64,000 nt of DNA from Bacteroidota bacterium (GTDB taxonomy: Bacteria; Bacteroidota; Bacteroidia; AKYH767-A; OLB10), in assembly GCA_023251535.1 (NCBI GenBank), contig JAHEYP010000011.1, positions 25,104 through 89,103 of the forward strand, given 5' to 3'. Under the pieces are notes generated by a model. That model worked only from the letters and a program-made list of their open reading frames with translations. It was not told the DNA's origin and did not search any database. The translations under genes were made by a program, and so were the position numbers. Below are positions 48,649-64,000 of the stretch, piece after piece (position 1 is the stretch's first letter; every line of letters begins with the position of its first letter).

Positions 48649-50031
48649 ATGAAAAGTACAAAAAGTAAATCGTGGGCAGAGCCATACAGAATGAAGATGG
48701 TGGAACTTTTAAAGATGACCACTCGCCAAGATAGAATCAAGGCAATCAAAAATGCAGGTTACAATACGTTCTTGTTGAATTCTGACGATGTGTATATCGA
48801 CTTGCTAACTGATAGCGGAACAAATGCCATGAGTGATCGTCAATGGTCGGCATTTATGTTGGGTGATGAAGCTTATGCAGGAAGTAAAAGCTTTTACAAA
48901 ATGGAAGCTGCTATTCAGAAGTTCTACGGATACAAATATGTTATTCCTACGCATCAAGGTCGTGGCGCTGAAAACATCCTTTCTAAAATCCTCATTAAAA
49001 AAGGCGATGTAGTACCGGGAAATATGTACTTCACCACTACCCGACTTCATCAAGAATTAGCCGGTGGTATGTTTACCGATATCATTATCGATCAAGCGCA
49101 TGATCCATTAAACGAATTTCCATTTAAAGGTAATGTTGATCTTAATAAGCTCGACAAAATCGTGAAGAAGTATGGCGCTAAGAAAATTCCTTATGTTAGT
49201 ATAGCCACTAACGTTAATATGGCAGGAGGGCAACCTATCAGCATGAAAAACCTGAAGGATCTGTACAAATATACTCGCAAGCATAAAATCAGAATTATCC
49301 ACGACATGACTCGTGTTGCTGAAAATGCTTATTTCATTCAGCAACGTGAAAAAGGTTATGAAAAATCAACTATCCGTGAAATCGTAAAGGAAATTTGTTC
49401 TTATACGGATGGAGCAACCATGAGTGCTAAAAAAGATGCGTTGGTGAACATTGGAGGATTCATGGCAACTAACGAATGGGATGTGTATGAAGAAGCACGT
49501 AACATGGTAGTTGTATATGAAGGATTGCATACTTATGGAGGACTTGCAGGACGTGATATGGAAGCTATTGCTGTGGGTATCGAAGAAAGTTTAGACGATA
49601 ACCATCAACATGCGCGTGTAGGGCAAGTTGAGTATTTAGGAAATAAAATGATTGATTACGGAATTCCGATTGTAAAACCTATCGGCGGACATGGAATTTT
49701 CGTTGATGCTAAAGCATTCTTACCACACTTAACACAAGATCAATTCCCGGCTCAGACACTCGCTGCTGAAATTTATATCGACTCTGGTGTTCGTACTATG
49801 GAACGCGGAATCGTATCGGCAGGAAGAAAAGCGAATGGCGAAAACTATTATCCGAAATTAGAACTAGTTCGCTTTACAATTCCTCGTCGCGTTTACACAC
49901 AAGCGCATATGGATGTAATTGCAGAATCAGCAGCTGCAGTTTTTGATCGTCGTAAATCGATCAAAGGATTACAAATGATATATGAACCTAAATATTTGAG
50001 ATTCTTCCAAGCGAAATTTAAAAAACTATGA
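48649..50031 (+). CDS. PLP-dependent beta-eliminating lyase, tyrosine phenol-lyase / tryptophanase family (closer to Tpl by eye)
   Basis: 460 aa. 'AGYNTFLLNSDDVYIDLLTDSGTNAMSD', 'IPTHQGRGAEN', 'SAKKDALVNIGG', 'GRDMEAIAVG', 'PAQTLAAEIYIDSGVRTMERGI', 'RFTIPRRVYTQAHMDV' align along the full length of Tpl/TnaA. Confidence 0.85.
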   Translation: MKSTKSKSWAEPYRMKMVELLKMTTRQDRIKAIKNAGYNTFLLNSDDVYIDLLTDSGTNAMSDRQWSAFMLGDEAYAGSKSFYKMEAAIQKFYGYKYVIPTHQGRGAENILSKILIKKGDVVPGNMYFTTTRLHQELAGGMFTDIIIDQAHDPLNEFPFKGNVDLNKLDKIVKKYGAKKIPYVSIATNVNMAGGQPISMKNLKDLYKYTRKHKIRIIHDMTRVAENAYFIQQREKGYEKSTIREIVKEICSYTDGATMSAKKDALVNIGGFMATNEWDVYEEARNMVVVYEGLHTYGGLAGRDMEAIAVGIEESLDDNHQHARVGQVEYLGNKMIDYGIPIVKPIGGHGIFVDAKAFLPHLTQDQFPAQTLAAEIYIDSGVRTMERGIVSAGRKANGENYYPKLELVRFTIPRRVYTQAHMDVIAESAAAVFDRRKSIKGLQMIYEPKYLRFFQAKFKKL

Positions 50032-50435
50032 GCCTACAGCCAAAACATATTTATGTTACGCTGTGCACGCTATTTATAGTTTACTCATTCAGCATTTATC
50101 TGCAGCCGTACTTTAAAAATACGGTTGCAGATACAGATGCTATTGCCGCAGGAAGAATTGTATGGCAAAAGAATAACTGTCAAACTTGTCATCAATTATA
50201 TGGACTTGGCGGTTATTTAGGTCCCGATTTAACCGATGTTTATTCGGCTCCCGGAAAAGGAAAAGATTTTATCAGAGCAATGCTTGCTACCGGAATTAAG
50301 CAAATGCCGCCTTTTCATCTTAGCGAAAAAGAATTCGCTCAGTTAACTGCATATTTAAAATCAGTCGACGAAAGTGGAAATGCTGATCCTCGGCAATTTA
50401 AAAAATTAAACACCGGAATGATTGAAGAAAAATAA
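50028..50435 (+). CDS. Membrane-anchored monoheme cytochrome c, NorC-like
   Basis: 135 aa. N-terminal TM, 'CQTCH' heme site, 'KQMPPF' Met ligand region. The ATG overlaps the lyase stop (ATGA). Confidence 0.6.
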   Translation: MSLQPKHIYVTLCTLFIVYSFSIYLQPYFKNTVADTDAIAAGRIVWQKNNCQTCHQLYGLGGYLGPDLTDVYSAPGKGKDFIRAMLATGIKQMPPFHLSEKEFAQLTAYLKSVDESGNADPRQFKKLNTGMIEEK

Positions 50436-51760
50436 TGAACAGCTATCTATCAATCGGTAAAACATTTTTACTAACAGCACTTTTTATTTTGCTGCTTGCA
50501 TTAACTTTTGGATTGTTATCAGCTTACAATTATTTAAACCTCGATTTCTTAAAAGCTTATCCCGGATTTACTGCCTTGCGACCTATGCATGTTTCTGGTG
50601 TGGTATTTTGGATTATACTTGGAGCAACAGGTTGTGTATATTGCGGATTAAGTGAATTTGTCCTCTCCGAAAAAGAAAACATATCGGTAAAAATACAATG
50701 GCTATTATGGTTGTTGGCGATCGCCGGTATTTTTTATTCCTACTTAACTCATCAATTTGGTGGTAGAGAATATTGGGAATTTAATCCTGTATGGGCTTTA
50801 CCAATTGTAATTGCATGGATAATATTTATCTATAACTTCATTAAAAGTGCTCGCCATTTACGTAATTGGCCGGTATATATTTGGATGTGGTTAACAGGAA
50901 TAGTGTTTTTTATGTTCACATTCTTAGAAAACTACTTATGGTTAATTCCTTATTTCCGCGGACATGTAATTACCGACATGACGATTCAATGGAAAGTTAA
51001 TGGATCACTCGTTGGAGCATGGAACCAATTACTTTACGGAACTTCTTTTTACTTGATGGATAAAATACAGAAGAAGTCGAATGTAGGTCACAGTAAACTT
51101 GCCTTCGCAATGTTCTTTTTAGGTTTGTTTAACTTAATGTTCAATTGGAGTCATCATATCTATACATTGCCGACCGAACATTATATCCGTTATATTGGTT
51201 ATGCTGTTAGCATGACAGAGTGGATCTTCTTTATACGCATAATAGCAATGTGGAAGAAAAGTGTTGATGAAATACCGAAAAACTACAGTTATTATAGTTA
51301 CCGATTTTTATTAGCTAGTGAAATATGGGTATTTCTAAATCTCGGTCAAGCCATATTAATGTCGATCCCGGCAATAAATGTATTTACCCATGGAACACAT
51401 ATCACTGTTGCACATTCAATGGGCACTACTATTGGAATCAATAGCATGATCTTAATGGCTGCTTGCTTTGAATTCTTTAAGATAAATATTGAAAATAAAG
51501 CAGCCAAATTCAATAGCTTTAATGCCATTTTCTGGACCATTCAAATTAGTCTGTTTGTATTTTGGTCGTCATTATTGGCTTCCGGAATTGAAAAAGGAAT
51601 TTGGCAATTAAAACCCAACCATGTTCCATTTTCGGAAATGATGAATAGTTTGTATCCTTATTTCGTATCACTATTCTTATCAGGTCTTGTATTATCATTC
51701 GCATTAGCCGCAATGACTTTAAAAATAATCTCAAGACATTTAGTAAAAAACTACGATTAA
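50435..51760 (+). CDS. Heme-copper oxidase superfamily membrane protein, NorB-like (nitric oxide reductase large subunit-like)
   Basis: 441 aa, about 12 TM. 'RPMHVSGVVFW' (helix II His), 'NWSHHIYTLP' (HH pair), 'FTHGTHITVAHSMGTT' (helix X His cluster) parallel NorB 'HTNLLIVW', 'GTGHHYF', 'YTHGTQLTAAHGH'. Start overlaps the NorC-like stop (TAATG). Confidence 0.6.
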   Translation: MNSYLSIGKTFLLTALFILLLALTFGLLSAYNYLNLDFLKAYPGFTALRPMHVSGVVFWIILGATGCVYCGLSEFVLSEKENISVKIQWLLWLLAIAGIFYSYLTHQFGGREYWEFNPVWALPIVIAWIIFIYNFIKSARHLRNWPVYIWMWLTGIVFFMFTFLENYLWLIPYFRGHVITDMTIQWKVNGSLVGAWNQLLYGTSFYLMDKIQKKSNVGHSKLAFAMFFLGLFNLMFNWSHHIYTLPTEHYIRYIGYAVSMTEWIFFIRIIAMWKKSVDEIPKNYSYYSYRFLLASEIWVFLNLGQAILMSIPAINVFTHGTHITVAHSMGTTIGINSMILMAACFEFFKINIENKAAKFNSFNAIFWTIQISLFVFWSSLLASGIEKGIWQLKPNHVPFSEMMNSLYPYFVSLFLSGLVLSFALAAMTLKIISRHLVKNYD

Positions 51761-52244: not shown

Positions 52245-52685
52245 ATGATATTTTCCAAAACATGTGAGTACGGAACCAGAGCTGTAATTTACATTGCGCA
52301 ACAAACTAAGAACAATAAAAGAACCAGCTTAAAAGATATTTCAGAACAAATAGGATCTCCCGAGGCATTCACAGCGAAAATATTACAACAATTAGTTAAA
52401 CATAATATCCTTATATCGACAAAGGGTGCCAACGGAGGCTTTGCCGTCGATAAAAAAAAGCTGAAGCGAATAAAATTAATGCATATTGTTTTCGCCATCG
52501 ATGGAGGCGAATACAGAGATATGTGTGTATTGGGATTGAAGAAATGTTCTGCTAAAGATCCTTGCCCGGTCCACCATAAATTTAAGCATGTAAAGAAAGA
52601 TTTGTTGAGTATGTTAAACAATACTACGCTCGACGAACTAACTAATAAAATGAATGACGGTAAGAGTTTCCTTAAACTCGATTGA
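52245..52685 (+). CDS. Rrf2-family transcriptional regulator (NsrR/IscR-like, three Cys for an Fe-S cluster)
   Basis: 146 aa. N-terminal wHTH 'CEYGTRAVIYIAQQ'; Cys triad 'CVLGLKKCSAKDPCPVHH'. Confidence 0.75.
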   Translation: MIFSKTCEYGTRAVIYIAQQTKNNKRTSLKDISEQIGSPEAFTAKILQQLVKHNILISTKGANGGFAVDKKKLKRIKLMHIVFAIDGGEYRDMCVLGLKKCSAKDPCPVHHKFKHVKKDLLSMLNNTTLDELTNKMNDGKSFLKLD

Positions 52686-52739: not shown

Positions 52740-54881
52740 ATGGAAAAATACGTGATTAAAAGAAACGGAGAATACAAACCACTTTCTCTGTTTAAAATTA
52801 GTGATGCAATTCAAAAAGGATTCACCAGTGTCAATGTTGAATATGACAATAATATCTTTTTAAATGTCATTGAAAAGCTTGCACCTAAAACTACTTGGAG
52901 TGTTGAGGAAATTCAAGATTTGATAGAAAAAGAATTGTTCGCTAGAAATTACTTCGAAGTGATGCGGTCATTTATGATCTATCGTCATACACGTAAATTA
53001 CAACGTGAAACATCTGAGGGAATTCAAGCAGATACAACCTATGTAAATAGTACTCAAACTATAGAAGAGTATATCGAACAAACCGATTGGCGTATCAATG
53101 CGAATGCTAATACTAGTTATTCAAATGCGGGTTTAGTAAATAATGTAGCCGGCAAAATAATTGCAAATTATTGGCTCGATAAAGTTTATACTAAAGAAGA
53201 AGGTTATACTCATCGTAATGGTGATGTACATATTCATGATCTTGATTGCCTCACCGGATATTGCGCTGGTTGGAGTTTACGTGTTTTGTTAAATGATGGT
53301 TTTAATGGCATCCGCGGTCGCGTAGAAAGCAAACCTCCTTCTCACTTCCGTGAAGCCTTAGGACAAATGGCGAACTTCTTAGGCATTTTACAAAGTGAAT
53401 GGGCCGGAGCTCAGGCTTTCAGTTCTTTCGATACTTATCTCGCTCCTTATGTCTTTAAAGATCAATTGAGCTATAGTGAAGTATTAAAGGCTATCAGAAG
53501 TTTCGTGTATAACTTAAACGTTCCTGCACGCTGGGGACAGTCTCCTTTTACCAATATTACTCTCGACTGGGTAGTTCCTGCCGATTTAAAAGAACAAATT
53601 CCTACGAAAAAGAATAATCACCTTTTTAGCAATATTCAAAGCGAACAACTTCTTGAAAAAGCGCACGAAAGAGGAGCTGACCAGTTAATTGATATGCGCT
53701 ATGAGCATTTCCAAAAAGAAATGAATCTCATCAATAAAGCGTATTATACGGTAATGACGGAAGGAGATTCTAACGGACAACCTTTTACCTTCCCAATCCC
53801 AACAGTAAACATTACAGAAGATTTCGATTGGTACGGAGAGAACACTGATTTGCTATTTGAGAATACTGCTAAAATCGGTTCGTCATACTTCCAGAATTTT
53901 ATCGGCAGTCAATATAAAATCGACGAACATGGTAATAGAGTAGAAAATGAAAATGCCTATAAACCCAATGCGGTAAGAAGTATGTGTTGCCGCTTGCAAC
54001 TCGATTTAAGAGAATTACTCAAACGTGGCAACGGACTCTTCGGCAGTGCTGAAATGACAGGAAGTATCGGTGTAGTTACGATTAACATGGCGCGATTAGG
54101 TTATCTGTATAAAGGAAATATTGAAGAACTTTACAAACGATTAGATTACTTATTGGAAATAGCGAAATCTACACTAGAGAAAAAAAGAGTATTTATACAA
54201 GAGATGTATGACAGAGGATTATATCCTTACACTAAAAGATATTTACCGCATTTCAGGAACCACTTCTCTACAATTGGTGTAAATGGAATCAATGAAATGA
54301 TTTTAAATTTCACGAATGAGAAAGATAATATTACAACAGACTCTGGAATAATGTTTGCGTCTAAAGTTTTAGATCATATCCGAACTAAAATGCAAGAATT
54401 CCAAGAGGCAACAGGAAATCTTTATAATCTCGAGGCTACTCCTGCTGAAGGTACTACCTATCGTTTTGCTAAAGAAGACAAAAAACGTTTCCCAGATATT
54501 ATCCAAGCCGGTTGCGAAGAAAATATTTATTACACCAACAGTTCCCAAATTCCGGTCGATCATACCGACGATCCATTTGAAGCATTACTCTTGCAAAATG
54601 AACTACAAACAAAATACACTGGAGGAACGGTGCTTCATCTTTACATGAGGGAAAAACTGAGTACACCAGAAGCTTGTCGTAACTTAATTCGCAAAGTGCT
54701 CTCTAATTTCAGTTTACCTTATATTACAATAACGCCTGTATTTAGTATTTGTCCTACACACGGATATTTAACTGGCGAACATGAATACTGTCCGAAATGC
54801 GACAGCCACTTAATTGAAGAACTCAAACTAAACAATCATCACTATGAACAACCATCAGCAGTTACTGCAACAGCACAATGA
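52740..54881 (+). CDS. nrdD: Anaerobic ribonucleoside-triphosphate reductase (class III) main body; glycyl-radical motif is not in this frame
   Basis: 713 aa. ATP-cone start 'MEKYVIKRNGEYKPLSL', catalytic core, C-terminal Zn-ribbon-like 'CPTHG...CPKC'. The ORF stops at 54881 before any RVxGY motif. Confidence 0.85.
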   Translation: MEKYVIKRNGEYKPLSLFKISDAIQKGFTSVNVEYDNNIFLNVIEKLAPKTTWSVEEIQDLIEKELFARNYFEVMRSFMIYRHTRKLQRETSEGIQADTTYVNSTQTIEEYIEQTDWRINANANTSYSNAGLVNNVAGKIIANYWLDKVYTKEEGYTHRNGDVHIHDLDCLTGYCAGWSLRVLLNDGFNGIRGRVESKPPSHFREALGQMANFLGILQSEWAGAQAFSSFDTYLAPYVFKDQLSYSEVLKAIRSFVYNLNVPARWGQSPFTNITLDWVVPADLKEQIPTKKNNHLFSNIQSEQLLEKAHERGADQLIDMRYEHFQKEMNLINKAYYTVMTEGDSNGQPFTFPIPTVNITEDFDWYGENTDLLFENTAKIGSSYFQNFIGSQYKIDEHGNRVENENAYKPNAVRSMCCRLQLDLRELLKRGNGLFGSAEMTGSIGVVTINMARLGYLYKGNIEELYKRLDYLLEIAKSTLEKKRVFIQEMYDRGLYPYTKRYLPHFRNHFSTIGVNGINEMILNFTNEKDNITTDSGIMFASKVLDHIRTKMQEFQEATGNLYNLEATPAEGTTYRFAKEDKKRFPDIIQAGCEENIYYTNSSQIPVDHTDDPFEALLLQNELQTKYTGGTVLHLYMREKLSTPEACRNLIRKVLSNFSLPYITITPVFSICPTHGYLTGEHEYCPKCDSHLIEELKLNNHHYEQPSAVTATAQ

Positions 54882-55008
54882 AAAACGTACTAAGTGTTTA
54901 GTATTTACACGAGTGATGGGCTATCACCGTCCCGTAGAAAGTTTTAACATCGGCAAGAAAGGTGAACACAAACAACGAACTCATTTCAACGAAAACAAAT
55001 GTTGTTAA
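54844..55008 (+). other. Out-of-frame (+1) ORF encoding the NrdD glycyl-radical segment 'TRVMGYHRPVESFNIGKKGEHKQR'
   Basis: Frame-1 translation MNNHQQLLQQHNEKRTKCLVFTRVMGYHRPVESFNIGKKGEHKQRTHFNENKCC*. RVxGY is the glycyl-radical signature. It overlaps the nrdD 3' end by 38 nt and the nrdG 5' end by 47 nt. Confidence 0.5.
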
Positions 55009-55675
55009 GCCAGTTTATAGCATAACACCGTTTACGCTTATCGACTTCCCCGATAAAACCGCTTGCATTGTTTGGTTTTCGGGATGTAATATGCGTTGCA
55101 GTTATTGTTATAATCCCGACATCGTTAACGGCAAAGGAAAACTGAGCTATGATGATGTATTAGATTTTTTAAGGAAGCGGGTGAATTTATTAGATGGAGT
55201 TGTCTTAAGCGGAGGCGAATGTACCCTTCATAAATCCATCGTTGAATTCATCCGCCAAATTAAAGCTTTTGGAATGTTGGTAAAAATCGATACCAATGGA
55301 TCTAATCCAGAAATGCTTCAAATTTTGATCGAAAATAAGTTGATCGATTTTGTTTCGATCGATTTCAAAGCTCCTGAAGCGAAGTTTGATTCAATAACTA
55401 AGTCGAATTTTAATTCGCAATTTCATGAATCTCTTCATTTGCTTATGTCGTCATCGATTCCTTTTGAAGTGCGAACCACAGTCCATTCCGATCTATTATC
55501 AACGAACGATATAAAAGCAATGTCGGAAGAACTTGTCAATGCAAATTATAAAGGGAAATACTTTTTGCAAGAATTTGTCAGTAATGTAATTACTATTGGC
55601 AATCTCGAAAACCCTGTACGTGAATTTTGCGACTATGAACATATCGAGTCCGCAATCCCAATTGAAATTCGTTAA
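54962..55675 (+). CDS. nrdG: Anaerobic RNR activating protein (radical SAM)
   Basis: 'CNMRCSYC' CxxxCxxC cluster motif, about 230 aa, immediately after nrdD. Confidence 0.85.
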   Translation: MNTNNELISTKTNVVKPVYSITPFTLIDFPDKTACIVWFSGCNMRCSYCYNPDIVNGKGKLSYDDVLDFLRKRVNLLDGVVLSGGECTLHKSIVEFIRQIKAFGMLVKIDTNGSNPEMLQILIENKLIDFVSIDFKAPEAKFDSITKSNFNSQFHESLHLLMSSSIPFEVRTTVHSDLLSTNDIKAMSEELVNANYKGKYFLQEFVSNVITIGNLENPVREFCDYEHIESAIPIEIR

Positions 55676-55825
55676 ATTTATTTATTGTTCGTTTAAACAA
55701 GCATTATTTGACTTTCATCACTAATCTATTTAGCGTGACAAGAGTCATTTTTTGAGGCTATCTCTATTCCTAATTTTAGTCTGTAATTGTCGCTAAATGA
55801 CTTTACTGCTAAACGCTATTTTATA

Positions 55826-56563
55826 ATGAATGGGAAGAAACTATTGATGATTTTTTTATTGGCTGCAATAACAATATCATCTTGCAAAAAAGACGATGAT
55901 ACAACTCCTATAACACCGGCTACTGAATCAGGATTGAAATTATCCATTAACTATACAATCGATAATAAACCCCTCTACATCGACAGTTTCCTTTATACAT
56001 CGGCTGCAGGATTAAACTATAGTATAAACAGGTTTCAATATTATCTGACATCAATTAAATTGATAAAACCTGATAATAGTGAAATCGTTGTTGCAAGTAA
56101 TCATTACTTTGATGCATTCGATGCTACTACATCAACAATAACAGCTTCAAATATACCAGCAGGTAATTATATCGGAATCAAATTCAAAATCGGTGTGGAT
56201 TCTTCTATGAATTATTGGGATTCTCTTCCAATAACGACAGAAAATACAAATATGCTTTGGCCACTCTTAATGGGCGGTGGATATCATTTCTTGAAATTTG
56301 AAGGCTATTACAAAGACGCTGGAAATGACTATGGTTATGCAATGCATCTAGGCACTAATGCATGCATTATTCCAATTTCCATATCCAAGAATATTACAGT
56401 AACATCAAGCAGCGCATTACAATTAAACATGACCATGAATATTAGTGAATGGTTAAAGAATCCAAACACGTTTAATTTTAATACGGATGGCAATTATATT
56501 ATGGGAGATTCTACGGCCATGAATAAAATAACCCAAAACGGACAAGATGTATTTAGCTTCTAA
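55826..56563 (+). CDS. Lipoprotein of unknown function, possibly an MbnP-like partner of the di-heme peroxidase
   Basis: Lipobox 'ITISSCKKDDD'. Sits 5' of, and slightly overlapping, the CCP gene. Start taken at MNGKKLL (55826). Confidence 0.3.
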   Translation: MNGKKLLMIFLLAAITISSCKKDDDTTPITPATESGLKLSINYTIDNKPLYIDSFLYTSAAGLNYSINRFQYYLTSIKLIKPDNSEIVVASNHYFDAFDATTSTITASNIPAGNYIGIKFKIGVDSSMNYWDSLPITTENTNMLWPLLMGGGYHFLKFEGYYKDAGNDYGYAMHLGTNACIIPISISKNITVTSSSALQLNMTMNISEWLKNPNTFNFNTDGNYIMGDSTAMNKITQNGQDVFSF

Positions 56564-56567
56564 GATC

Positions 56568-57629
56568 ATGAAAAATATTATTTATTTATCCGCCGTTCTT
56601 GTAGTATTGACAATGTACTCTTGTAAAAAAGATACAGTTGAGTCGACACCATATACTCCTACCGCATACGAACTAACCGTACCTGACCATTTCCCACCAC
56701 CCTATCTATCAAATGAAAATCCTTTAACTGTTGAAGGAGTACGATTAGGAAGAATGCTCTATTACGACCCTATATTATCGACGAACGGATTATCATGCAC
56801 TGCATGTCACGAACCTAGCAAATCGTTCTCTACGGGCATCTATACTGCTCCTAGCGGAGAAAAAATCAGCGTGCCTCCTCATGTTAATTTAGCATGGAAT
56901 CCCGATTATAACTGGACCGGCTCAGAACCGATCTTAAATCACTTACCGATGGGTGATTTTAGTCCGACAATCTTTAATACCGATATGGCTTTACTTGTTA
57001 CAAAGTTTAAGTCACATGCATTATATCCTACATTATTTAAACAAGCCTTCAATATTGATGATGTAGCTTCATTATCACACCACGATTTACAAGTTAAAAT
57101 CTCATTAGCTATAACTCAGTTCTTGAGAACAATGGTTTCATCAGACACAAAATTAGATCGAGTAATGCGACATGAAGCTACTTTCACTCCACAAGAATGG
57201 GATGGATATGTAACGTTCACAACTGAAACGGGTGATTGTTTCCATTGTCATGGATATCCGTTAATGACAAGTAATATTTACAGCAACAACGGACTTGAAC
57301 TTTCTCCTCAAGGAACTAATCAAGGAAGATATTTAGTCACAGGCAATCCAACTGATATTGGTAAATACAGCATTCCATCGCTAAGAAATATTGAATTGAC
57401 AGCACCGTATATGCACGATGGTAGATTCCAGACGTTAGAAGATGTAGTAGAATTTTATAATTCAGGAGTGCAATGGAATTCACCGAATATTGATCCGATT
57501 ATGACGAAGCCTGCGAAAATCTACGGATTAAATCTAACACCTACACAAAAAGCTAACTTAGTGTTATTCCTTAAGGCACTTACCGACTCAACCTTTATGA
57601 ATAATCCTAACTATGCTAATCCGCTTTAA
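56568..57629 (+). CDS. Di-heme cytochrome c peroxidase family (CCP/MauG/MbnH-like)
   Basis: Two CxxCH sites, 'CTACHEP' and 'CFHCHGYP'. About 350 aa with signal peptide. Confidence 0.85.
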   Translation: MKNIIYLSAVLVVLTMYSCKKDTVESTPYTPTAYELTVPDHFPPPYLSNENPLTVEGVRLGRMLYYDPILSTNGLSCTACHEPSKSFSTGIYTAPSGEKISVPPHVNLAWNPDYNWTGSEPILNHLPMGDFSPTIFNTDMALLVTKFKSHALYPTLFKQAFNIDDVASLSHHDLQVKISLAITQFLRTMVSSDTKLDRVMRHEATFTPQEWDGYVTFTTETGDCFHCHGYPLMTSNIYSNNGLELSPQGTNQGRYLVTGNPTDIGKYSIPSLRNIELTAPYMHDGRFQTLEDVVEFYNSGVQWNSPNIDPIMTKPAKIYGLNLTPTQKANLVLFLKALTDSTFMNNPNYANPL

Positions 57630-57632
57630 AGA

Positions 57633-58184
57633 CTAGGTGCGTTGTTTTCTATTTAAATAAATCACGAGGTAAAGAACATATATTCCTAGGAATAAAGAAA
57701 TCTTTGTTCCGTACTCTGCCCAATTTAGATTTTGCTCAAATCCAGGGTGATTATTAAATATGTTTGCCTGGTAATTGAGCCATTGGATAGATATAATCCA
57801 AAATAAAGCAATTCCTAGCCCTACATAGAGATTTCGCTTTAGCGCAGGAATAAACAACAACAAAGGCAATATTCCATAATTGACAAACGGAATAACTATT
57901 TGGTACCAATGAGGACCATTGATAAAAGCAATAATAAAATCACGCTCTGATTCATTGTTATTCCATCGCGCAAATGAAATATTAGCAATAACGATTGCAA
58001 AAAACACAAGACAAGCCAAGCGAACTAAACGCAAACTAACTTCAGTAAAATCGGATAGCGCTTCTTTACCTTTAATAAGCGTAATGATAAATAGAATTGG
58101 AATTAAACACATCAATCCCAAATAAACGGCATCGTCGACATAAATAATCGACCTAGTTATTTTGGTAAATGTAGCGGCGTTCAT
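57633..58184 (-). CDS. Hypothetical integral membrane protein (4 to 5 TM)
   Basis: Hydrophobicity only. Last gene of the minus-strand run. Confidence 0.3.
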   Translation of the reverse strand: MNAATFTKITRSIIYVDDAVYLGLMCLIPILFIITLIKGKEALSDFTEVSLRLVRLACLVFFAIVIANISFARWNNNESERDFIIAFINGPHWYQIVIPFVNYGILPLLLFIPALKRNLYVGLGIALFWIISIQWLNYQANIFNNHPGFEQNLNWAEYGTKISLFLGIYVLYLVIYLNRKQRT

Positions 58185-58188
58185 TCTT

Positions 58189-59214
58189 TTAGTTCAAATT
58201 GTATTTAGTCTTAAAATTAAGCTCAAGAGAATCGAGATTTCTACTCGAAGGAGAAGAAGAAAGTTCTTTATTATCTACATCTTTCAAATCAGACAATAAA
58301 AGATTTGTGAGCACTGCATTTAGCACCGGTTTTTCGAACAACGAACTGGCGAGCATATATTTTTGTACTGGAGGAACAGCTGCAAATTTTTCAGCCCCAG
58401 GAACAACTTTTCCAGCAACTGCCAACGTTTCATATTTATCTTTCAGATACAGATTAATAAATCGGATATAAGAAGGAGAAATATATGCCTGAGGATTATT
58501 CAAGAATTTTTTGTCAGTATAGTTGAAGTAAGTTGAATCTGGATCAATAGGTAAATTTTTCATTCTATGTTTCCATAAAAACATTAAGCGATCGGCAGCA
58601 CATTCATACTTAACTGTATAAACTGCATAATCATAATACAACTGATTTTCGCTTCGGTTTCCCCAATTCTTAGCGTAAAAATCAAGCATAGCATCCATCC
58701 TTTTGCCATTATATTCGGCATAAGGCATAGCATCCATATAATTAGAAGCAATATAATACTCTTGTTTAATATCGGGCTTCTTATAGAACTCGTAGATTAA
58801 TTTCAAGAGGAAAGTATTATAATCCGATATTTCATTCTTCGATAATATAACTGGACTAAATTCCTTACCTGTAAATGTAATATCAAGATGTCCGTTTTCA
58901 GTTAACAGAGCGTTTGAAATGAGATCTCTATTACCGCATACCAAGGTAAAAACACTCGCTGAATCAACTTTAGGATGAAGTTCAAAATTTCCGTTTCCAT
59001 CAATTCGAACCGAATCCAAGGTAGATTTTATTCCCAAAAATAGATCCACTGAATCTTTGTACGATTTGTAATAAACAAAGCTATCGGGAGCATTTTTAAT
59101 ATTACCCTTAATAACGGCTCCGGCAACTTCATCTTTTTTAACGGAATTGCAAGAAGAAACGGCAAACATTGATATAGCAGCCCAAAAGAAAGTAAATTTT
59201 AAATAAGTGCGCAT
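58189..59214 (-). CDS. Hypothetical lipoprotein with DUF4369-like N-terminal beta domain
   Basis: Lipobox 'AVSSCNSV'; N-terminus 'VIKGNIKNAPDSFVYYK...VRIDGNGNFELHP' resembles DUF4369 (from memory). No CxxC thioredoxin motif follows. Confidence 0.3.
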   Translation of the reverse strand: MRTYLKFTFFWAAISMFAVSSCNSVKKDEVAGAVIKGNIKNAPDSFVYYKSYKDSVDLFLGIKSTLDSVRIDGNGNFELHPKVDSASVFTLVCGNRDLISNALLTENGHLDITFTGKEFSPVILSKNEISDYNTFLLKLIYEFYKKPDIKQEYYIASNYMDAMPYAEYNGKRMDAMLDFYAKNWGNRSENQLYYDYAVYTVKYECAADRLMFLWKHRMKNLPIDPDSTYFNYTDKKFLNNPQAYISPSYIRFINLYLKDKYETLAVAGKVVPGAEKFAAVPPVQKYMLASSLFEKPVLNAVLTNLLLSDLKDVDNKELSSSPSSRNLDSLELNFKTKYNLN

Positions 59215-59304
59215 AGTAATTTAATGTTCCGACAAATGTATTTAAAAAAAAGAATCTCGCATAATGCGAACATTATACGAGATTCTTTAAACTGTAATAA
59301 AAGA

Positions 59305-59727
59305 TTATTTACCTTTTAAAGTACGTACGTAGTTAACAATTGCCCAACGTTCGTTATCGCTAAGTTTTTCTTTGAAAGATGGCATTGGTTTTCTTCCTTC
59401 AGTAGTTTTCCAATATAATTCGCCATCGCTAGCTTTTGCAAATTCAGCAGAAGTGAAATCACCGCAGCTGATATCAATTTTCTCTGCTTTAGTTCCGTCA
59501 CCTTTACCTTTAGCTCCATGGCAAGATTTGCAATGTTGAGCCCATAATTCTTTTCCTTCAGCTACGCTTGCGTCGTCAGCTTTTACAGGATTTTTCATTT
59601 TCACAGCATTGTCAGGTGCTGGCCAAGGTTTTCCTTTAGGTTTTTCTTGAGCGTTTGCAGTACCTGCTGCTAACATCAATACAACTGCTAATGCAGATGC
59701 TGATAACATGCTACCAATTGTTTTCAT
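59305..59727 (-). CDS. Class I monoheme cytochrome c
   Basis: Signal peptide, 'CKSCHG', Met ligand region 'RKPMPSF'. Start taken at MKTIGSML. Confidence 0.75.
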   Translation of the reverse strand: MKTIGSMLSASALAVVLMLAAGTANAQEKPKGKPWPAPDNAVKMKNPVKADDASVAEGKELWAQHCKSCHGAKGKGDGTKAEKIDISCGDFTSAEFAKASDGELYWKTTEGRKPMPSFKEKLSDNERWAIVNYVRTLKGK

Positions 59728-59758
59728 TGTGAAATTCATAATTTTTGTTTTTAAGAGA

Positions 59759-60310
59759 TTATTTGTGCTTAGCAAGATGCTTGCTAGTTTTTCTGATTTT
59801 AAATAATTGAAGTACTACATAGATGATTGTGCCCCAGATTCCAAAGAGAAGCAAATTTGATACCACAATAAAATAGATTGGGGCATTTTCGCGTGATCCT
59901 GATAAAGATCTCTCTAATTCTGCAACTTGCTTGCGAGGTACACACCAATTAGATTCAGAATGTACTTCTGCACTACCATAGTTCTCATCATCTTCAACTT
60001 TCGCAATAACTTCAATTTTTCCATTTAAATCGGCAGGGATATCACCAGGAAATTCAAACTTCGCATTTCCTTCTTCATCTGTACTAACTCCATCACCTAT
60101 TGGGAGTAAAGAAAACAATCGCTTCACGTAAAGTTTAACTTCCACTCCAGATATCGAAGTGTCAGATGAAGTTGCATGAACAACACAGTATTTTACTGAA
60201 TCTTCTGTTGTATAGTCAATCTTCAGCGAAGCTTCATAATCTTGTGCTGAAGCTATCTTTGAAAAAGCAACAAGAAGGGCGAATATTATTATTTTATAGC
60301 TCTTTTTCAT
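59759..60310 (-). CDS. Hypothetical periplasmic protein with C-terminal TM anchor
   Basis: Signal peptide, acidic 130-aa domain, C-terminal helix 'IYFIVVSNLLLFGIWGTIIYVVLQLF'. Sits between the cytochrome c and the NrfD-like genes. Confidence 0.3.
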   Translation of the reverse strand: MKKSYKIIIFALLVAFSKIASAQDYEASLKIDYTTEDSVKYCVVHATSSDTSISGVEVKLYVKRLFSLLPIGDGVSTDEEGNAKFEFPGDIPADLNGKIEVIAKVEDDENYGSAEVHSESNWCVPRKQVAELERSLSGSRENAPIYFIVVSNLLLFGIWGTIIYVVLQLFKIRKTSKHLAKHK

Positions 60311-60317
60311 AACGCTG

Positions 60318-61694
60318 TTATTTGTAATTAATAATTTCATCTTTTCCTTCTAGTTTACCTTCAGCAACTTCCCAAACAGAAATAATTGGGAAGAAACGTG
60401 AGAAGATTGTAACTATTAACATCATTGCTGCGAATGTTGCAGATACGATAGTCATTTCTACAAGACTAGGACTATAGTGCATCCAAGATTTAGGCACATC
60501 TTGAATTGGCATATATGGATGCGCTAATCCAGGAATTACAATCAAATAGCGTTTGAACCAAGCAGCAATAACAACAACAACTGCGATTACTGTTAATGGA
60601 ACAGGTTTACGCATTGCTTTAAATAACGGTAGAATAGCTGGCACAAACATTCCGAAGAATACTACTGACCAATATAGTGGAGCATCTTTGCCAATAAATA
60701 CACTTAACAAGTGATTGGCATGCAATCCTGACATTTTATAAGCAGGAACTAAATATTCGTTCACATTAAAGTAAATGTAAATACATGACATCAATACCAG
60801 GGCTTGTCCGAGTTTATCGAAATGCATAGGTGTTAGATAATTTTCTAGTTTATATGCTTTACGGAATACAAACACGGCAACAATCATAGCAGCAACTCCA
60901 AGTAAGAATGCACCTGAAACGAAGTAAGCTCCGAAGTTTGTACTATCCCACTCTGAACGTAATGTGGTTGCAAATAACCAAGCAGTAACAGTGTGAATTG
61001 AAACTCCTAAAGGAATAACCAACACAGTTAAAATCTTAATGCATTTCTTCAACACTTTCCATTGTTCAGGAGTGCCTTCCCATCCTAGCGATAAAAATTC
61101 GTACATCCTCATTTGCCATTTCGGCTTATTATGTAAGTGATTACTGCAAGTAGAAAGCGAAGGAATCAACGGAATAAACAACAGAATCAAACTTGCTGTT
61201 ATGTACGTTAATATTACAATGATATCCCAAACAATCGGAGATTGAATCCTTCCATGTAAAAACAGATAGTGTAAACGATCAGGGCGACCCATGGCAGCAA
61301 CGATACTCACACCGGCAAGCATAATTGCAGACACTGCAATAATTTCTGCGATACGAGATAAAGGTCGATACCATTCAAAGTGTGTAAGTTTTAGTACAGC
61401 CGACATCAATACACCGATTAAGCTTAAGGCAACAAAAAATACGAAGTTAGAAATATAAACTCCCCACATTGTATAATCACGAAGGGAAACAGTTACATAT
61501 TTACTTCTGGTTTCTTGGATATAATACGCAACAACACCTGCAATGCAAACCATTATTAAAAAGGCAATCCAGATTTTACCCCATTTACCGATTGTTTGTA
61601 CCGGGCGAAGTAAGTCACTCTTCATTTCCATATACTCTTCCTGAGTAAACGTTTCATACGTTGTTTTCTCAGATAATATTCTAGGATCTTTCAT
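60318..61694 (-). CDS. NrfD/PsrC-family quinol-interacting integral membrane subunit
   Basis: 458 aa, 8 to 10 TM, directly after the NrfC-like Fe-S gene (12-nt gap). Confidence 0.7.
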   Translation of the reverse strand: MKDPRILSEKTTYETFTQEEYMEMKSDLLRPVQTIGKWGKIWIAFLIMVCIAGVVAYYIQETRSKYVTVSLRDYTMWGVYISNFVFFVALSLIGVLMSAVLKLTHFEWYRPLSRIAEIIAVSAIMLAGVSIVAAMGRPDRLHYLFLHGRIQSPIVWDIIVILTYITASLILLFIPLIPSLSTCSNHLHNKPKWQMRMYEFLSLGWEGTPEQWKVLKKCIKILTVLVIPLGVSIHTVTAWLFATTLRSEWDSTNFGAYFVSGAFLLGVAAMIVAVFVFRKAYKLENYLTPMHFDKLGQALVLMSCIYIYFNVNEYLVPAYKMSGLHANHLLSVFIGKDAPLYWSVVFFGMFVPAILPLFKAMRKPVPLTVIAVVVVIAAWFKRYLIVIPGLAHPYMPIQDVPKSWMHYSPSLVEMTIVSATFAAMMLIVTIFSRFFPIISVWEVAEGKLEGKDEIINYK

Positions 61695-61705
61695 AACAAT
61701 GAGTA

Positions 61706-62647
61706 TTATTCTTGCGTATTGTGTGCTTCAGTTGCTTCTTCGAATGGGAATTGGCGTTTAACAGGAGGCAAATAATAAACTCTAGGTTTTGTTCCTAACT
61801 CTTCGAATAGGCGATATCCTGCTCTGCTTCTTAATAGTTCGGTTAATCTGAAAGTATCTTCGCCGTTAGTAACAGTGTCTTCTAATTCATCGCCATGGAA
61901 AATAGCTCCGTTCGGACACTCAACCACACATGCAGGTAATAAACCTTGTTCGCAACGACTTGTACAGAAATCGCATTTCGCAACAGTACCTTCCTGTGCG
62001 TATGATGTTCTGCAATAGTTATCGGGAATACTGTCTTTGTTCGCCTCAGTGAATTTCTTTTGTTCAGGGCGACCAAAGTTGAAAGTACGTGCTGAATAAG
62101 GACAAGCCGCCATACAGAATTTACATCCTATACAACGATCATTGTCGATAGCCACAATACCATCGGTTCTTTTAAAAGTAGCGTCTACAGGACAAACCTT
62201 CGTACAAGGAGGGTTATCGCAATGAAAACACATAGTTGGCATCCAATAAGGGGATGTCAACTCTGAGTCTTGCATACGCTTAACTTTTAAATATTCAACA
62301 GGCGCTAAGATTTTATGTGCCTTTTGGCAACCTTCAACGCATTTACGTTCATTTGCACAACGAGAAAGATCGATTACTCTGATAAACTTTCTTCCTTCTA
62401 CACCTTTGCGAATTTCTTCTGCTGTGTAAGGGTCATTAGATGCATGATGTTCAACATGTGAACTATCAACTTCTACTAAATGACCATCGGCTGTAAGAAC
62501 TTTAACTTTTTTTCCTGTCAGAGGCTTTTCTTCACTCAGCAGGTTTTTTTGGATGCCAATGGAAGCGATGGTTGCTCCTCCAGCTAATAAGCCGAATTTT
62601 AAGAACTTCCTCCTTCCATTGTTTTCATTTTCACTTTCCATAATCAA
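61706..62647 (-). CDS. Tat-exported 4x[4Fe-4S] ferredoxin subunit, NrfC/PsrB/HybA-like
   Basis: Twin-arginine 'NGRRKFLKFGLLAGGATIAS'; Cys clusters 'CANERKCVEGC', 'CFHCDNPPCTKVCP', 'CIGCKFCMAACP', 'CDFCTSRCEQGLLPACVVECP'. Confidence 0.85.
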   Translation of the reverse strand: MIMESENENNGRRKFLKFGLLAGGATIASIGIQKNLLSEEKPLTGKKVKVLTADGHLVEVDSSHVEHHASNDPYTAEEIRKGVEGRKFIRVIDLSRCANERKCVEGCQKAHKILAPVEYLKVKRMQDSELTSPYWMPTMCFHCDNPPCTKVCPVDATFKRTDGIVAIDNDRCIGCKFCMAACPYSARTFNFGRPEQKKFTEANKDSIPDNYCRTSYAQEGTVAKCDFCTSRCEQGLLPACVVECPNGAIFHGDELEDTVTNGEDTFRLTELLRSRAGYRLFEELGTKPRVYYLPPVKRQFPFEEATEAHNTQE

Positions 62648-62704
62648 TACGGTTTGTGTACTAAATTTTTTTAACTGATTTGTTCGTTGTTTGTATTCGA
62701 AAAA

Positions 62705-63595
62705 TCAGAATCCCCAATTTCTGGAAATATTAAATCCAATTAGGAATTCACGTTTTGTGAAATCGTTTGTATTAAACACTACATTATCGTGTTCAAGAAT
62801 TGCATCGGCAGTAGAGAAAAAGATTTGGAACTGGTGACTACCTGTTGACACTTCATAACCGATACTCAAATTTGGTTTTGCTTTAATAGCATCATCTACA
62901 TCAGGAGCGTTAACTAAATAATCAAAGTCAACGATAATTGATGACTGCGGACTAAATTTATATCTTCCCACCATTGATGCTCCAATAAAATCATGTTGCT
63001 GATAAATAGAATCGATGATGTTAAAATGAGAATAAGTTCCTGCTACTTGTAATGATAATTTGCTGGTGATTTTACGAGCAATCATCAACTCATGAAAATA
63101 TGTGTATTTGTATGCAGGTTTGTATTCTCCATCGGAGTTTAAGAAGTTATCATTAGCTGTAGAGCTCTTTGAAATACTTCCTAGATACGTAACAGATACC
63201 GGACAGCCACTACCTTTTGTTTGGCGAAGGATTGCATATTTTGCTTCGAAATCGTAAGTCATATTACGTTTAGTAGCACCAACACCTATTGAAAGTCGAT
63301 CGGTAATTCCGTAACCTAATCCCATTCGAATATTTGCAGAAGCATATAAACCGAATAAATCTTTTTCATCTTTAATTTTTCCGAAGCGATGTTGAATCAC
63401 AAAATCAAGAGATTTCTTTCTTGGTGCTTCGATTGTTGGATTATTAATTACGATACCATATTCGAAAGTGTTTCTTACGAATTCCTTTTTAACAGGAGCA
63501 GCAGGCTCATCTTGCGCAACTGAAACAGCAGGCAACAGCATTAATAAAAGGACAGAATAATGGGTGATGTATGAAGTGATCTTTTTCATGGTCAT
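62705..63595 (-). CDS. Putative outer-membrane beta-barrel protein
   Basis: Signal peptide, alternating amphipathic beta pattern, C-terminal '...GFNISRNWGF' ending in Phe. Confidence 0.4.
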   Translation of the reverse strand: MTMKKITSYITHYSVLLLMLLPAVSVAQDEPAAPVKKEFVRNTFEYGIVINNPTIEAPRKKSLDFVIQHRFGKIKDEKDLFGLYASANIRMGLGYGITDRLSIGVGATKRNMTYDFEAKYAILRQTKGSGCPVSVTYLGSISKSSTANDNFLNSDGEYKPAYKYTYFHELMIARKITSKLSLQVAGTYSHFNIIDSIYQQHDFIGASMVGRYKFSPQSSIIVDFDYLVNAPDVDDAIKAKPNLSIGYEVSTGSHQFQIFFSTADAILEHDNVVFNTNDFTKREFLIGFNISRNWGF

Positions 63596-63601
63596 TAATT
63601 A

Positions 63602-63991
63602 TTAGTTGTTTTGTGCTCCTTGTTTTATCCAAGCTAGAATATATCCTTTTTCTTCAGGGGTAAGTTTTCCACTCGGCGGCATTGGGTTAGCTGTAGCTAT
63701 AATACGTTTATAGAGTAAACTTCCTTCGGCATTTGATGTATCAACATAACCTAGTCCGGTTAAATTATCATATGCTTTTTCGGCCGATAAATTTGGAGGA
63801 GGCCCTCCACCTACGTGGCAATTAGCAGTAGCACAATCTTCACTTAGAATTGGAACTATATCATTGGTGAAACTAACAGGAGTAGTAATTTCCACTTTCT
63901 TCGGAGTGAGATAAGCTTTTTCACAGCTGCTGAATAGCAATGCTGCAAATAAAGTAGCCGGTAAATATTTTAGTAACGTTCTCATGATCAT
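63602..63991 (-). CDS. Small lipoprotein with a CX4CH motif (possible atypical heme c or metal site)
   Basis: Lipobox 'LLFSSCEK'; 'DCATANCHVGGGPPPN'; Met/Pro-rich 'ANPMPPSG'. Confidence 0.3.
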   Translation of the reverse strand: MIMRTLLKYLPATLFAALLFSSCEKAYLTPKKVEITTPVSFTNDIVPILSEDCATANCHVGGGPPPNLSAEKAYDNLTGLGYVDTSNAEGSLLYKRIIATANPMPPSGKLTPEEKGYILAWIKQGAQNN

Positions 63992-64000
63992 TTAAATGTC

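Follow-up and report, generated by a model that had tools for sequence, protein, structure and literature searches.

An eight-gene operon of Bacteroidota joins a predicted quinol:cytochrome c module related to alternative complex III with an outer-membrane barrel and heme lipoproteins

Here, we analyze a 64,000-nucleotide stretch of DNA from a Bacteroidota bacterium (contig JAHEYP010000011.1, positions 25,104 to 89,103; the window in what follows), towards the end of which lies a run of genes for an iron-sulfur (Fe-S) protein, an NrfD-like membrane protein, small cytochromes c and an outer-membrane beta-barrel. An earlier note on this DNA had described the run as six tightly packed minus-strand genes, and a check of the open reading frames (ORFs) of the window found all six at the positions given there, on that strand and in close succession. 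The public contig L001, which overlaps the window over 13,683 bases with a single difference, extends 4 kb past base 64,000 and carries two further upstream genes on the same strand, encoding a YceI-like lipoprotein and then an EB_dh-fold heme lipoprotein. The run in the window is the 3' three-quarters of an operon of eight genes, which encode, in order, the YceI-like lipoprotein, the EB_dh heme lipoprotein, a CX4CH cytochrome, a DUF5777 barrel, the Fe-S protein, an ActC-like membrane protein, a 193-amino-acid (aa) protein termed p193 and a cytochrome c. From its 5' end to its terminator, the operon contains the following features.

L001:1676-2545, same strand as the operon: lipoprotein of 289 aa with a YceI domain.
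63988..64000, minus strand: last 13 nt of the gene for the EB_dh-fold heme lipoprotein, which runs off the window end; full gene L001:2635-4005 (456 aa).
63602..63991, minus strand: predicted monoheme c-type cytochrome lipoprotein of 129 aa, with lipobox LFSSC and heme motif CATANCH (CX4CH).
62705..63595, minus strand: outer-membrane beta-barrel of 296 aa, Pfam DUF5777 (PF19089), E=1.8e-75.
61706..62647, minus strand: Tat-exported four-cluster Fe-S subunit of 313 aa, with Tat motif GRRKFLK, four Cys groups and a Fer4_11 match.
60318..61694, minus strand: integral membrane subunit of 458 aa, putatively quinol-interacting, Pfam NrfD, E=8.7e-25, ActC type.
59759..60340, minus strand: ORF of 193 aa for the bitopic subunit p193; translation probably begins at the second Met (183 aa, 59759..60310); no Pfam match.
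59305..59775, minus strand: ORF with a single CKSCH motif, encoding a soluble monoheme cytochrome c of the periplasm; 140 aa from the likely start, at 59305..59727.
59249..59288, minus strand: intrinsic terminator closing the operon (stem of 18 bp, loop of 4 nt, T-run).

If the starts favored by orthologues are used, the gaps from the CX4CH gene to the cytochrome c gene are 6, 57, 11, 7 and 31 nt; if the longest ORFs are taken, the NrfD/p193 and p193/cytochrome pairs overlap by 23 and 17 nt instead. The stop of the EB_dh gene overlaps the CX4CH gene by 4 nt, and the terminator begins 17 nt past the cytochrome c stop. All eight genes share one strand and this single terminator at their end. On the 5' side, L001 shows about 700 nt of non-coding DNA and then a divergent bactofilin gene.

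The earlier note had remarked on the lack of a catalytic subunit, which holds in the window and on the L001 extension, and had suggested that a periplasmic reductase may lie beyond the window end. The suggestion fails. Past base 64,000, L001 holds the EB_dh and YceI lipoprotein genes and then the start of the operon; no gene for a molybdopterin enzyme, NrfA or NosZ occurs in the operon or its upstream extension, nor does a psrA/phsA-type gene that would make this an ordinary complex iron-sulfur molybdoenzyme (CISM), and a catalytic gene at this place is rejected. Related loci came from two scans: one of genomes, one per species, with the membrane protein as query (62 loci), and one of metagenomes that used the DUF5777 barrel alone as query and is independent of the inner-membrane core (80 loci). 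No conserved periplasmic reductase adjoins the module in the 62 genome loci, and no molybdopterin subunit was found in any locus examined.

Gene order is conserved in about 100 loci, with median gaps of 19 nt between the NrfC-like Fe-S gene and the NrfD-like membrane gene, 3 nt between the latter and p193, and 32 nt between p193 and the cytochrome c gene. The NrfC-like gene lies directly upstream of the NrfD-like gene in 57 of 57 genome loci, and p193 directly downstream of it in 55 of 57 (26 of 26 in a further count); a cytochrome c gene is present in 41 of 43 genome loci and a DUF5777 gene in 31 of 43. The gene for the small lipoprotein with a CXnCH heme motif (CX4CH in the window) directly precedes DUF5777 in 35 of 38 genome loci and 54 of 60 metagenome loci, at a median gap of 16 nt. 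Among barrel-seeded metagenome loci, 32 of 41 carry the NrfC- or NrfD-like gene in the same locus, on the same strand and with short gaps. This arrangement is not due to chance. The 193-aa protein and the barrel had been set aside in the earlier note as unassigned extras; since p193 follows the membrane gene and the barrel pairs with the CXnCH gene, neither is an extra.

Nearly all of the 62 genome loci are labelled Bacteroidota, among them metagenome-assembled genomes (MAGs) of Bacteroidia as well as Flavobacteriales, Chitinophagales, Saprospiraceae and Lentimicrobium. Four carriers are in culture, namely Flavobacterium franklandianum (LB3P56), F. soyangense, F. fluvii (DSM 19978) and F. alvei (HR-AY). 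Many of the source samples are stratified lakes, soil and sludge. One typical Bacteroidota cluster (CAZHTC010000001.1, L029) sits in a MAG labelled 'uncultured Bifidobacteriaceae', which is probably a taxonomic mis-assignment.

The 458-aa membrane protein is a member of the NrfD family and, judged from its sequence, a putative quinol-site subunit of the 10-helix ActC type. Its hydropathy profile has about ten hydrophobic segments, and its only sequence matches in the PDB are ActC chains of alternative complex III (ACIII; 6btm_C, 6lod_C, 8k9e_C and 6f0k_C), which it matches near full length (residues 20-444) at E values of about 1e-43 to 3e-43. PsrC was not detected in this PDB search at E<=0.01. 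An alignment guided by the published list of ActC pocket residues (PMC5928083) has W82, I86, F89 and D169 kept as W77, I81, F84 and D157, and residues of the ActC proton channel are partly retained.

The predicted partner of this subunit, the Fe-S protein, consists of 4Fe-4S domains only, preceded by an N-terminal Tat region of about 85 aa. Its PDB matches are ArrB, PsrB and the C-terminal part of ActB. Across 101 orthologues 15 cysteines are invariant: Cys groups II-IV are complete, and group I reads C-x5-C-x3-C, its second cysteine being absent in all 101. The ligand rule of four-cluster subunits places a three-cysteine site at the membrane-distal end, and we infer that the three-cysteine cluster lies at that end of the Fe-S wire. 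The Tat-signal part of the protein (with LTADGKLVEV) is called as a separate upstream ORF of 70-90 aa in two distant loci (L064:7455-7664 and L065:7380-7631) and in many metagenome loci, for which a split gene or else a recurrent frameshift or start-site problem would account. Elsewhere, too, small ORFs lie between DUF5777 and nrfC; the idea that they encode a new protein was rejected, as they are the Tat-signal N-terminus of NrfC.

The next core protein, p193, carries a signal peptide, a periplasmic Ig-like beta-sandwich, an ERSLxxSRxxAP motif and one C-terminal transmembrane (TM) helix with an invariant WG, and no Cys, His or Met is conserved in its alignment. A search with its AlphaFold2 model (predicted local distance difference test, pLDDT, 86) returned generic Ig-like matches only. 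At 50% identity, this large family comprises 942 clusters with E<=1e-3, or 314 with E<=1e-30, and most members have a two-Ig form of about 300 aa. Together with its fixed position, these features point to p193 as a fourth core member that is probably a cofactor-less structural subunit. Some loci hold two copies of the core (Fe-S, ActC-like and p193 genes, with or without the cytochrome), in tandem in L031, L058 and L105 and inverted in L028 and L056; the second copy carries a two-Ig p193 of about 315 aa.

The soluble cytochrome c has a signal peptide ending in ANA-QE and no lipobox, and matches both Pfam Cytochrome_CBB3 and Cytochrom_C. Its PDB matches are c552-type cytochromes (E about 1e-18) and subunit E of ACIII (6btm_E, 3.9e-11; also 6f0k_E and 6lod_E), by which its heme domain is classed as ActE-like. 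Of the ActD and ActE features for which the earlier note had suggested looking, the ActE-like cytochrome is present, and an ActD-like p193 is not: p193 as ActD was rejected, as topology and fold differ and neither sequence profile nor fold search gave an ActD match. In ActD, two TM helices leave the N- and the C-terminus on the cytoplasmic side (PMC5928083).

These relationships are best weighed against ACIII itself, a quinol:cytochrome c oxidoreductase that reduces soluble cytochromes and oxidases (PMC5928083). With the complexes of Flavobacterium johnsoniae (6BTM) and Rhodothermus marinus (6F0K) the cluster shares a 10-helix subunit of the ActC type, an Fe-S protein homologous to ActB2 and a cytochrome homologous to ActE, and its order of Fe-S protein, ActC-like protein, small membrane protein and monoheme cytochrome mirrors actB2-actC-actD-actE. 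Unlike ACIII, the cluster encodes no pentaheme ActA, ActB1, ActD or second membrane subunit ActF (in the window and L001, and for ActA and ActF also in the 62 genome loci). ActB of ACIII has about 1000 aa, with a molybdopterin-like B1 part fused to B2, whereas the Fe-S protein here has only 313 aa; p193 replaces ActD with another topology and fold, and the cytochrome here is without a lipobox. The three-cysteine site of the cluster also lies in Cys group I and is presumably distal, whereas the [3Fe-4S] cluster of ACIII is membrane-proximal; the distal [4Fe-4S] wire of ACIII, for which no role is known, reaches to about 7 Å below the surface, and it has been suggested that it might serve as a second exit (PMC5928083). 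With ActA, ActB1, ActD and ActF missing, the cluster is not ACIII. Most plausibly, the Fe-S/NrfD pair forms a quinol:cytochrome c module related to ACIII, and a quinol:cytochrome c activity would be expected here by analogy. The earlier note had read the pair as a menaquinol:cytochrome c module, and the exclusive ActC matches in the PDB, the ActE match and the ACIII-like gene order speak in favor of that reading.

Other families that share such a pair stand further away. With NrfCD and PsrBC modules of CISM enzymes the cluster has in common a Tat-exported four-cluster ferredoxin and a cofactor-less quinone-site subunit of the NrfD family. A four-cluster ferredoxin of this kind has 16 cysteines, and the Fe-S protein here has 15 invariant ones in four groups. 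However, the enzymes of this group (Psr, Nrf, Dms, Ttr) have a catalytic molybdopterin or multiheme subunit, and none is encoded in the operon, its extension or related loci, and the membrane subunit here has 10 predicted helices rather than 8. DsrO and DsrP are the best NCBIfam matches of the pair, and DsrJOP also joins such a pair to a periplasmic c-type cytochrome, but the scores stay below the cut-offs (DsrO 165.7 versus 200 bits, DsrP 101.3 versus 350 bits) and no dsrMKJ genes are nearby. The NosGH proteins of clade II nos loci, which presumably carry electrons from menaquinol to an acceptor in the periplasm, are likewise an NrfC-like and an NrfD-like protein encoded with small monoheme cytochromes c (NosC1/C2). 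The present cluster differs from theirs in gene order and in its extra members (p193, barrel, CXnCH lipoprotein, EB_dh protein), and neither nosZ nor nosDFYL was found in the scanned parts of the window (about 23 kb, roughly 27.5-38.3 and 40.4-43.5 kb, is unscanned), on L001 or in the 62 genome loci.

The second group of genes concerns the outer membrane. The AlphaFold2 model of the DUF5777 protein (pLDDT 86, predicted TM-score 0.80) is a barrel of 12 strands whose nearest folds are NanC/KdgM, FapF, the COG4313 channel, Tsx and OmpG, at TM-scores of about 0.5. A near-invariant TFENxxxINNQT stretch (residues 43-54) lies in the N-terminal part, and two His, in IQHRFG and TGSHQFQIF (residues 69 and 254), are invariant; in the model the invariant segments are near opposite rims and may serve in docking or as ligand sites. 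A CXnCH heme motif is absent from all of about 120 DUF5777 homologues, the cytochrome always being a separate gene. The lipoprotein encoded by that gene has no Pfam match and, for the CX4CH protein, no PDB sequence match. An alignment of 38 orthologues has either CX4CH or CXXCH in one and the same set of columns, together with a conserved (P)MPP motif and, near the C-terminus, an invariant WIxQGAxNN. That the two heme motifs interchange and a Met is conserved speaks for a genuine heme site, which makes the small CXnCH lipoprotein a cytochrome candidate and a probable partner of the barrel.

The gene ahead of this pair varies among loci and encodes an EB_dh-like protein, one or two hexaheme lipoproteins or, in L014, a diheme protein. 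In the 456-aa lipoprotein of the present operon, the EB_dh domain (PF09459) scores 70.2 bits against a cut-off of 33.3 bits (E=3.6e-19); a Cytochrome_CBB3 domain with CTYCH is inserted in it, and a second motif reads CAASCH. A CX3CH motif occurs at the same place in 42 of 43 EB_dh-like homologues, a C-terminal His is invariant in an alignment of 18 sequences, and the family profile matches NxrC (7b04_C, E=8.7e-9). The protein may bind heme covalently via the CX3CH motif plus this His. The closest known systems are DOMON/CBM9-fold heme domains and the gamma subunits of type II dimethyl sulfoxide (DMSO) reductases such as EbdC and NxrC. The fold is that of these gamma subunits, but those hold heme b non-covalently and have alpha and beta molybdoenzyme partners, whereas the proteins here have the conserved CX3CH and a lipid anchor and no alpha or beta genes. 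Some of the hexaheme lipoproteins have collagen-like linkers after the lipid-bearing Cys. The hexaheme protein of Flavobacterium passes the Pfam threshold for MtrC/MtrF domain II/IV (37.6 versus 30 bits), and a PDB search with the hexaheme protein gave no meaningful sequence match. In the distant loci L064 and L065, a second DUF5777 barrel is paired with a hexaheme lipoprotein.

The N-termini of these lipoproteins resemble a known export signal. An x-K-(D/E)-(D/E/Y) pattern after the lipidated Cys is enriched in the YceI, c10, EB_dh and CXnCH lipoproteins, whereas just 2 of 20 DUF4369 lipoproteins from these loci have acidic residues at this place, and that of the window lacks the acidic motif. 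The optimal form of the surface-export signal of Bacteroidetes is C-X-K-(D/E)2-X (PMC5080379), which suggests that the lipoproteins are surface-exposed.

The known trans-envelope conduits offer partial parallels. As in MtrCAB and other porin-cytochrome complexes (PCC), the gene for a barrel goes together with one for a c-type cytochrome, there are multiheme lipoproteins, one of them with the MtrC/MtrF match, and an inner-membrane quinol dehydrogenase with a periplasmic cytochrome would complete the proposed chain. Unlike in PCC, whose barrels have 20 or more strands and sheathe a periplasmic multiheme cytochrome, DUF5777 has 12 and no MtrA-like decaheme gene is present; we detected no sequence homology to MtrA or MtrB in the cluster. 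Cyc2 differs by architecture, being a single polypeptide with an N-terminal monoheme domain fused to the barrel, whereas here the lipoprotein is separate. Cbp2D and Cbp2E of Cellvibrio, which combine YceI-like and c-type cytochrome modules destined for the outside of the cell, are loosely similar by their parts lists only (PMC8981238, PMC10916295). The paper did not bear out a DOMON-like nature of the X132 domain of Cbp2D, which serves as a loose analogy only.

Further gene sets of a comparable make-up were seen in some loci. A second trio of cytochrome and barrel recurs, made up of a cytochrome c (about 155 aa), a porin-like protein without a Pfam match (about 390 aa) and a CXXCH lipoprotein (89 aa); it is divergent from the YceI or CXnCH gene in L007, L019, L025, L026 and L051 and lies downstream in L021 and L027. 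At L130:5114-6775, and also in L134 and L137, a 344-aa heptaheme protein with a C-terminal TM helix is paired with a 206-aa multi-pass cytochrome b-like protein, which may represent a second quinol dehydrogenase.

It is attractive to propose, and in our estimate has an even chance of being correct, that the operon encodes a menaquinol:cytochrome c module that feeds an outer-membrane unit of cytochrome and barrel together with probably surface-exposed lipoproteins. In the inner membrane, by homology, the ActC-type subunit would bind menaquinol at the periplasmic face and pass electrons into the Tat-exported four-cluster Fe-S subunit. As there is no ActA heme wire, the electrons would have to leave via the Fe-S wire, with the soluble ActE-like monoheme cytochrome c as the acceptor at its distal end and p193 as a fixed structural subunit. 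In the outer membrane, as the conserved gene pairing suggests, the monoheme lipoprotein cytochrome would work with the 12-stranded barrel and pass electrons between the periplasmic cytochrome and the heme lipoproteins with surface-export-like N-termini. The terminal heme lipoprotein would be the EB_dh-fold protein here and one or two hexaheme proteins in other lineages, and the YceI-type lipid/quinone-binding lipoprotein may assist. The net result would be an exchange of electrons, in either direction, between the menaquinone pool and a redox partner located either at the outer membrane or outside it, for which Fe(III), humic substances or another extracellular acceptor are candidates. It is gene pairing and signal motifs that point to electron transfer across the outer membrane. 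Where the inner-membrane module is found alone, it is probably a general quinol:cytochrome c oxidoreductase.

Several observations weigh against this proposal. In the 458-aa protein, His139 of ActC is replaced by Ala134 and Asp253 by Leu240; with two of the three charged pocket residues replaced, the quinol chemistry is assumed. The 12-stranded barrel is far smaller than MtrB-type sheaths and also smaller than the predicted barrel of Cyc2, and how a heme would bridge it is unexplained. The window's own lipoproteins match the export motif only partly, reading C-E-K-A-Y in the CX4CH protein and C-E-Q-D-Y in the EB_dh protein. The core lacks the barrel module in about a quarter of loci, which makes the two modules separable. 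A molybdenum-cofactor biosynthesis set flanks the cluster upstream in L034, L036, L039, L046 and L054 and downstream in L058, and its presence in loci of Flavobacterium could mean that a molybdoenzyme partner has gone unseen; Pfam confirms MoeA, a TauE-family protein and a fused MoaC/MoCF_biosynth protein in this set, and by our reading of the sequences it also comprises a MoaA-like protein, MobA, MoaD, MoeB and MoaE. Regulation gives a divided picture. A regulator of the Crp/FNR family adjoins the cluster in about 16 loci, with an N-terminal four-Cys motif in ten, and nrdDG and an Rrf2 regulator stand beside it in the window and in L014, which hints at redox control; yet an FNR box (TTGAT-N4-ATCAA, at most one mismatch) occurs in only 7 of 102 upstream regions, with no conserved box among them. 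A scan for sigma-70 promoters, a consensus ill-suited to Bacteroidota, was at chance level.

An alternative that we regard as unlikely, and that stands close to the reading of the earlier note, is that the core is a general menaquinol:cytochrome c oxidoreductase feeding a cbb3 oxidase, a nitric oxide reductase (NOR)-like enzyme, NosZ or a nitrite reductase encoded elsewhere, and that the outer-membrane genes are unrelated to it. In about 12 of 43 genome loci the core does stand by itself, lacking the DUF5777 and CXnCH genes, and its homologue ACIII is a reducer of soluble cytochromes and oxidases (PMC5928083). A NorB-like enzyme with a cytochrome c subunit is moreover encoded 7.5 kb away in the window, with the Rrf2 and nrdDG genes nearby. 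Against this, the 62 genome loci have no conserved terminal reductase beside the module, and the NOR-like genes were found only in the window's contig. A search that started from the barrel alone recovered the core in 32 of 41 loci, on the same strand and with short gaps, and in the present operon all eight genes share one strand and one terminator.

Less probable again, and in our view quite unlikely, is that DUF5777 is a small-molecule channel and the EB_dh and hexaheme proteins are periplasmic oxidoreductases acting on a solute (an N-oxide, an S-oxyanion, a chlorite-type or an organic compound), linked by the core to the quinone pool. All of the nearest barrel folds are solute-specific channels of 12 to 14 strands, the multiheme proteins are weakly similar to the C-terminal region of Cytochrom_C552/NrfA (E=1e-4), EB_dh domains occur in periplasmic molybdoenzymes, as the NxrC match illustrates, and the molybdenum-cofactor genes of Flavobacterium would fit. 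However, the tightest coupling in these loci is that of the barrel with the small monoheme cytochrome, at the median gap of 16 nt, which a plain channel does not predict. The upstream heme protein swaps among unrelated folds (EB_dh, hexaheme, the diheme of L014), which fits interchangeable electron carriers better than one catalytic site. The surface-export-like N-termini and the absence of a molybdopterin subunit from every locus also disagree with this explanation.

Least probable is a flow in the reverse direction, in which electrons from Fe(II) or reduced humics would be taken up by barrel and cytochrome acting as a split Cyc2 and passed by the cytochrome to an oxidase or NOR, some being driven uphill to quinone by the ActC-like complex: a monoheme cytochrome with a small barrel is the Cyc2 layout in two pieces, ACIII has reportedly been proposed in the iron-oxidation pathway of neutrophilic iron oxidisers and many samples are from stratified lakes, soil and sludge, but the carriers are heterotrophic Bacteroidota, MtrC/MtrF-like multihemes and FNR-type regulators are more typical of reductive export, and sequence fixes no direction by which this could be separated from the best explanation.

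Beyond the terminator, two further genes lie on the strand of the operon.

58189..59214, minus strand: DUF4369 lipoprotein of 341 aa, Pfam DUF4369, E=3.3e-10.
57633..58184, minus strand: small multi-pass membrane protein of 183 aa, 3' of the DUF4369 gene, with no Pfam or NCBIfam match.

A DUF4369 gene follows the cluster in 16 loci from genomes and in several from metagenomes, and its product may be an accessory protein. The 183-aa membrane protein is kept only in the closest loci (L001, L006 and L011). Convergent on these downstream genes, an MbnP-family gene (258 aa) overlaps the gene for an MbnH-family di-heme MauG-like peroxidase (360 aa) at 55787-57629 on the plus strand, a pairing with the operon that is seen only in the window's contig. 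Further away (48649-51760, plus strand), a gene for tyrosine phenol-lyase (TIGR02618, 728 bits) overlaps that for a 135-aa monoheme cytochrome c by 4 nt. They are followed by the gene for the 441-aa heme-copper subunit I, 7.5 kb from the operon, whose best solved relatives are NorB (4xyd_A, E=3e-10). Tyrosine phenol-lyase and a divergent NOR-like enzyme make an odd apparent operon. Downstream of it come the Rrf2 regulator (52245-52685) and nrdD/nrdG (52740-55675). A linkage of the cluster to the NOR-like enzyme, MbnPH or nrdDG was rejected, as none of these neighborhoods is conserved beyond the window except in L014 for nrdDG and Rrf2. A second YceI-domain protein (211 aa) is encoded far from the operon at 3425-4060 (minus strand), adjoining a 964-aa Reg_prop/Y_Y_Y histidine kinase. 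ORFs of 609 aa (46786-48615, plus strand) and 558 aa (17857-19533, minus strand) have no Pfam match.

Our searches of the literature found no paper on the cluster and none mentioning DUF5777, in a searchable literature that does not cover all journals. Neither a review of the NrfD family (PMC8076601) nor a paper on Melioribacter respiration (PMC5492636) describes the cluster, and the literature on Cyc2, extracellular electron transfer and Bacteroidetes yielded nothing relevant. Each part varies a known kind of system, namely an ACIII/NrfCD-type module or a cytochrome encoded beside an outer-membrane barrel. What appears to be undescribed is their combination, along with the 12-stranded barrel, the monoheme lipoprotein as a protein of its own, the EB_dh proteins with putatively covalent heme, and p193. 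If the barrel is merely a solute channel, the cluster would still be a new respiratory module, of ordinary interest.

The wider proposal is that Bacteroidota, including freshwater Flavobacterium, own a minimal conduit across the outer membrane, in which a monoheme lipoprotein and DUF5777 are fed by the Fe-S wire of an ACIII relative and which ends in surface heme lipoproteins. We put it forward tentatively, as a possibility about which we have more doubt than confidence. If true, it would give roles to DUF5777, to the CXnCH lipoprotein, to the p193 family, for which no Pfam model exists, and to the CX3CH EB_dh proteins. It would also mean that ACIII-type machinery works without a heme wire, by way of the Fe-S wire that the ACIII structure papers left unexplained. 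The cultured carriers in Flavobacterium make the question directly testable. Surveys that rely on Mtr, Omc or Cyc2 markers would miss such a route in an abundant heterotrophic phylum, and Bacteroidota of lakes, soil and sludge could respire extracellular acceptors or donors.

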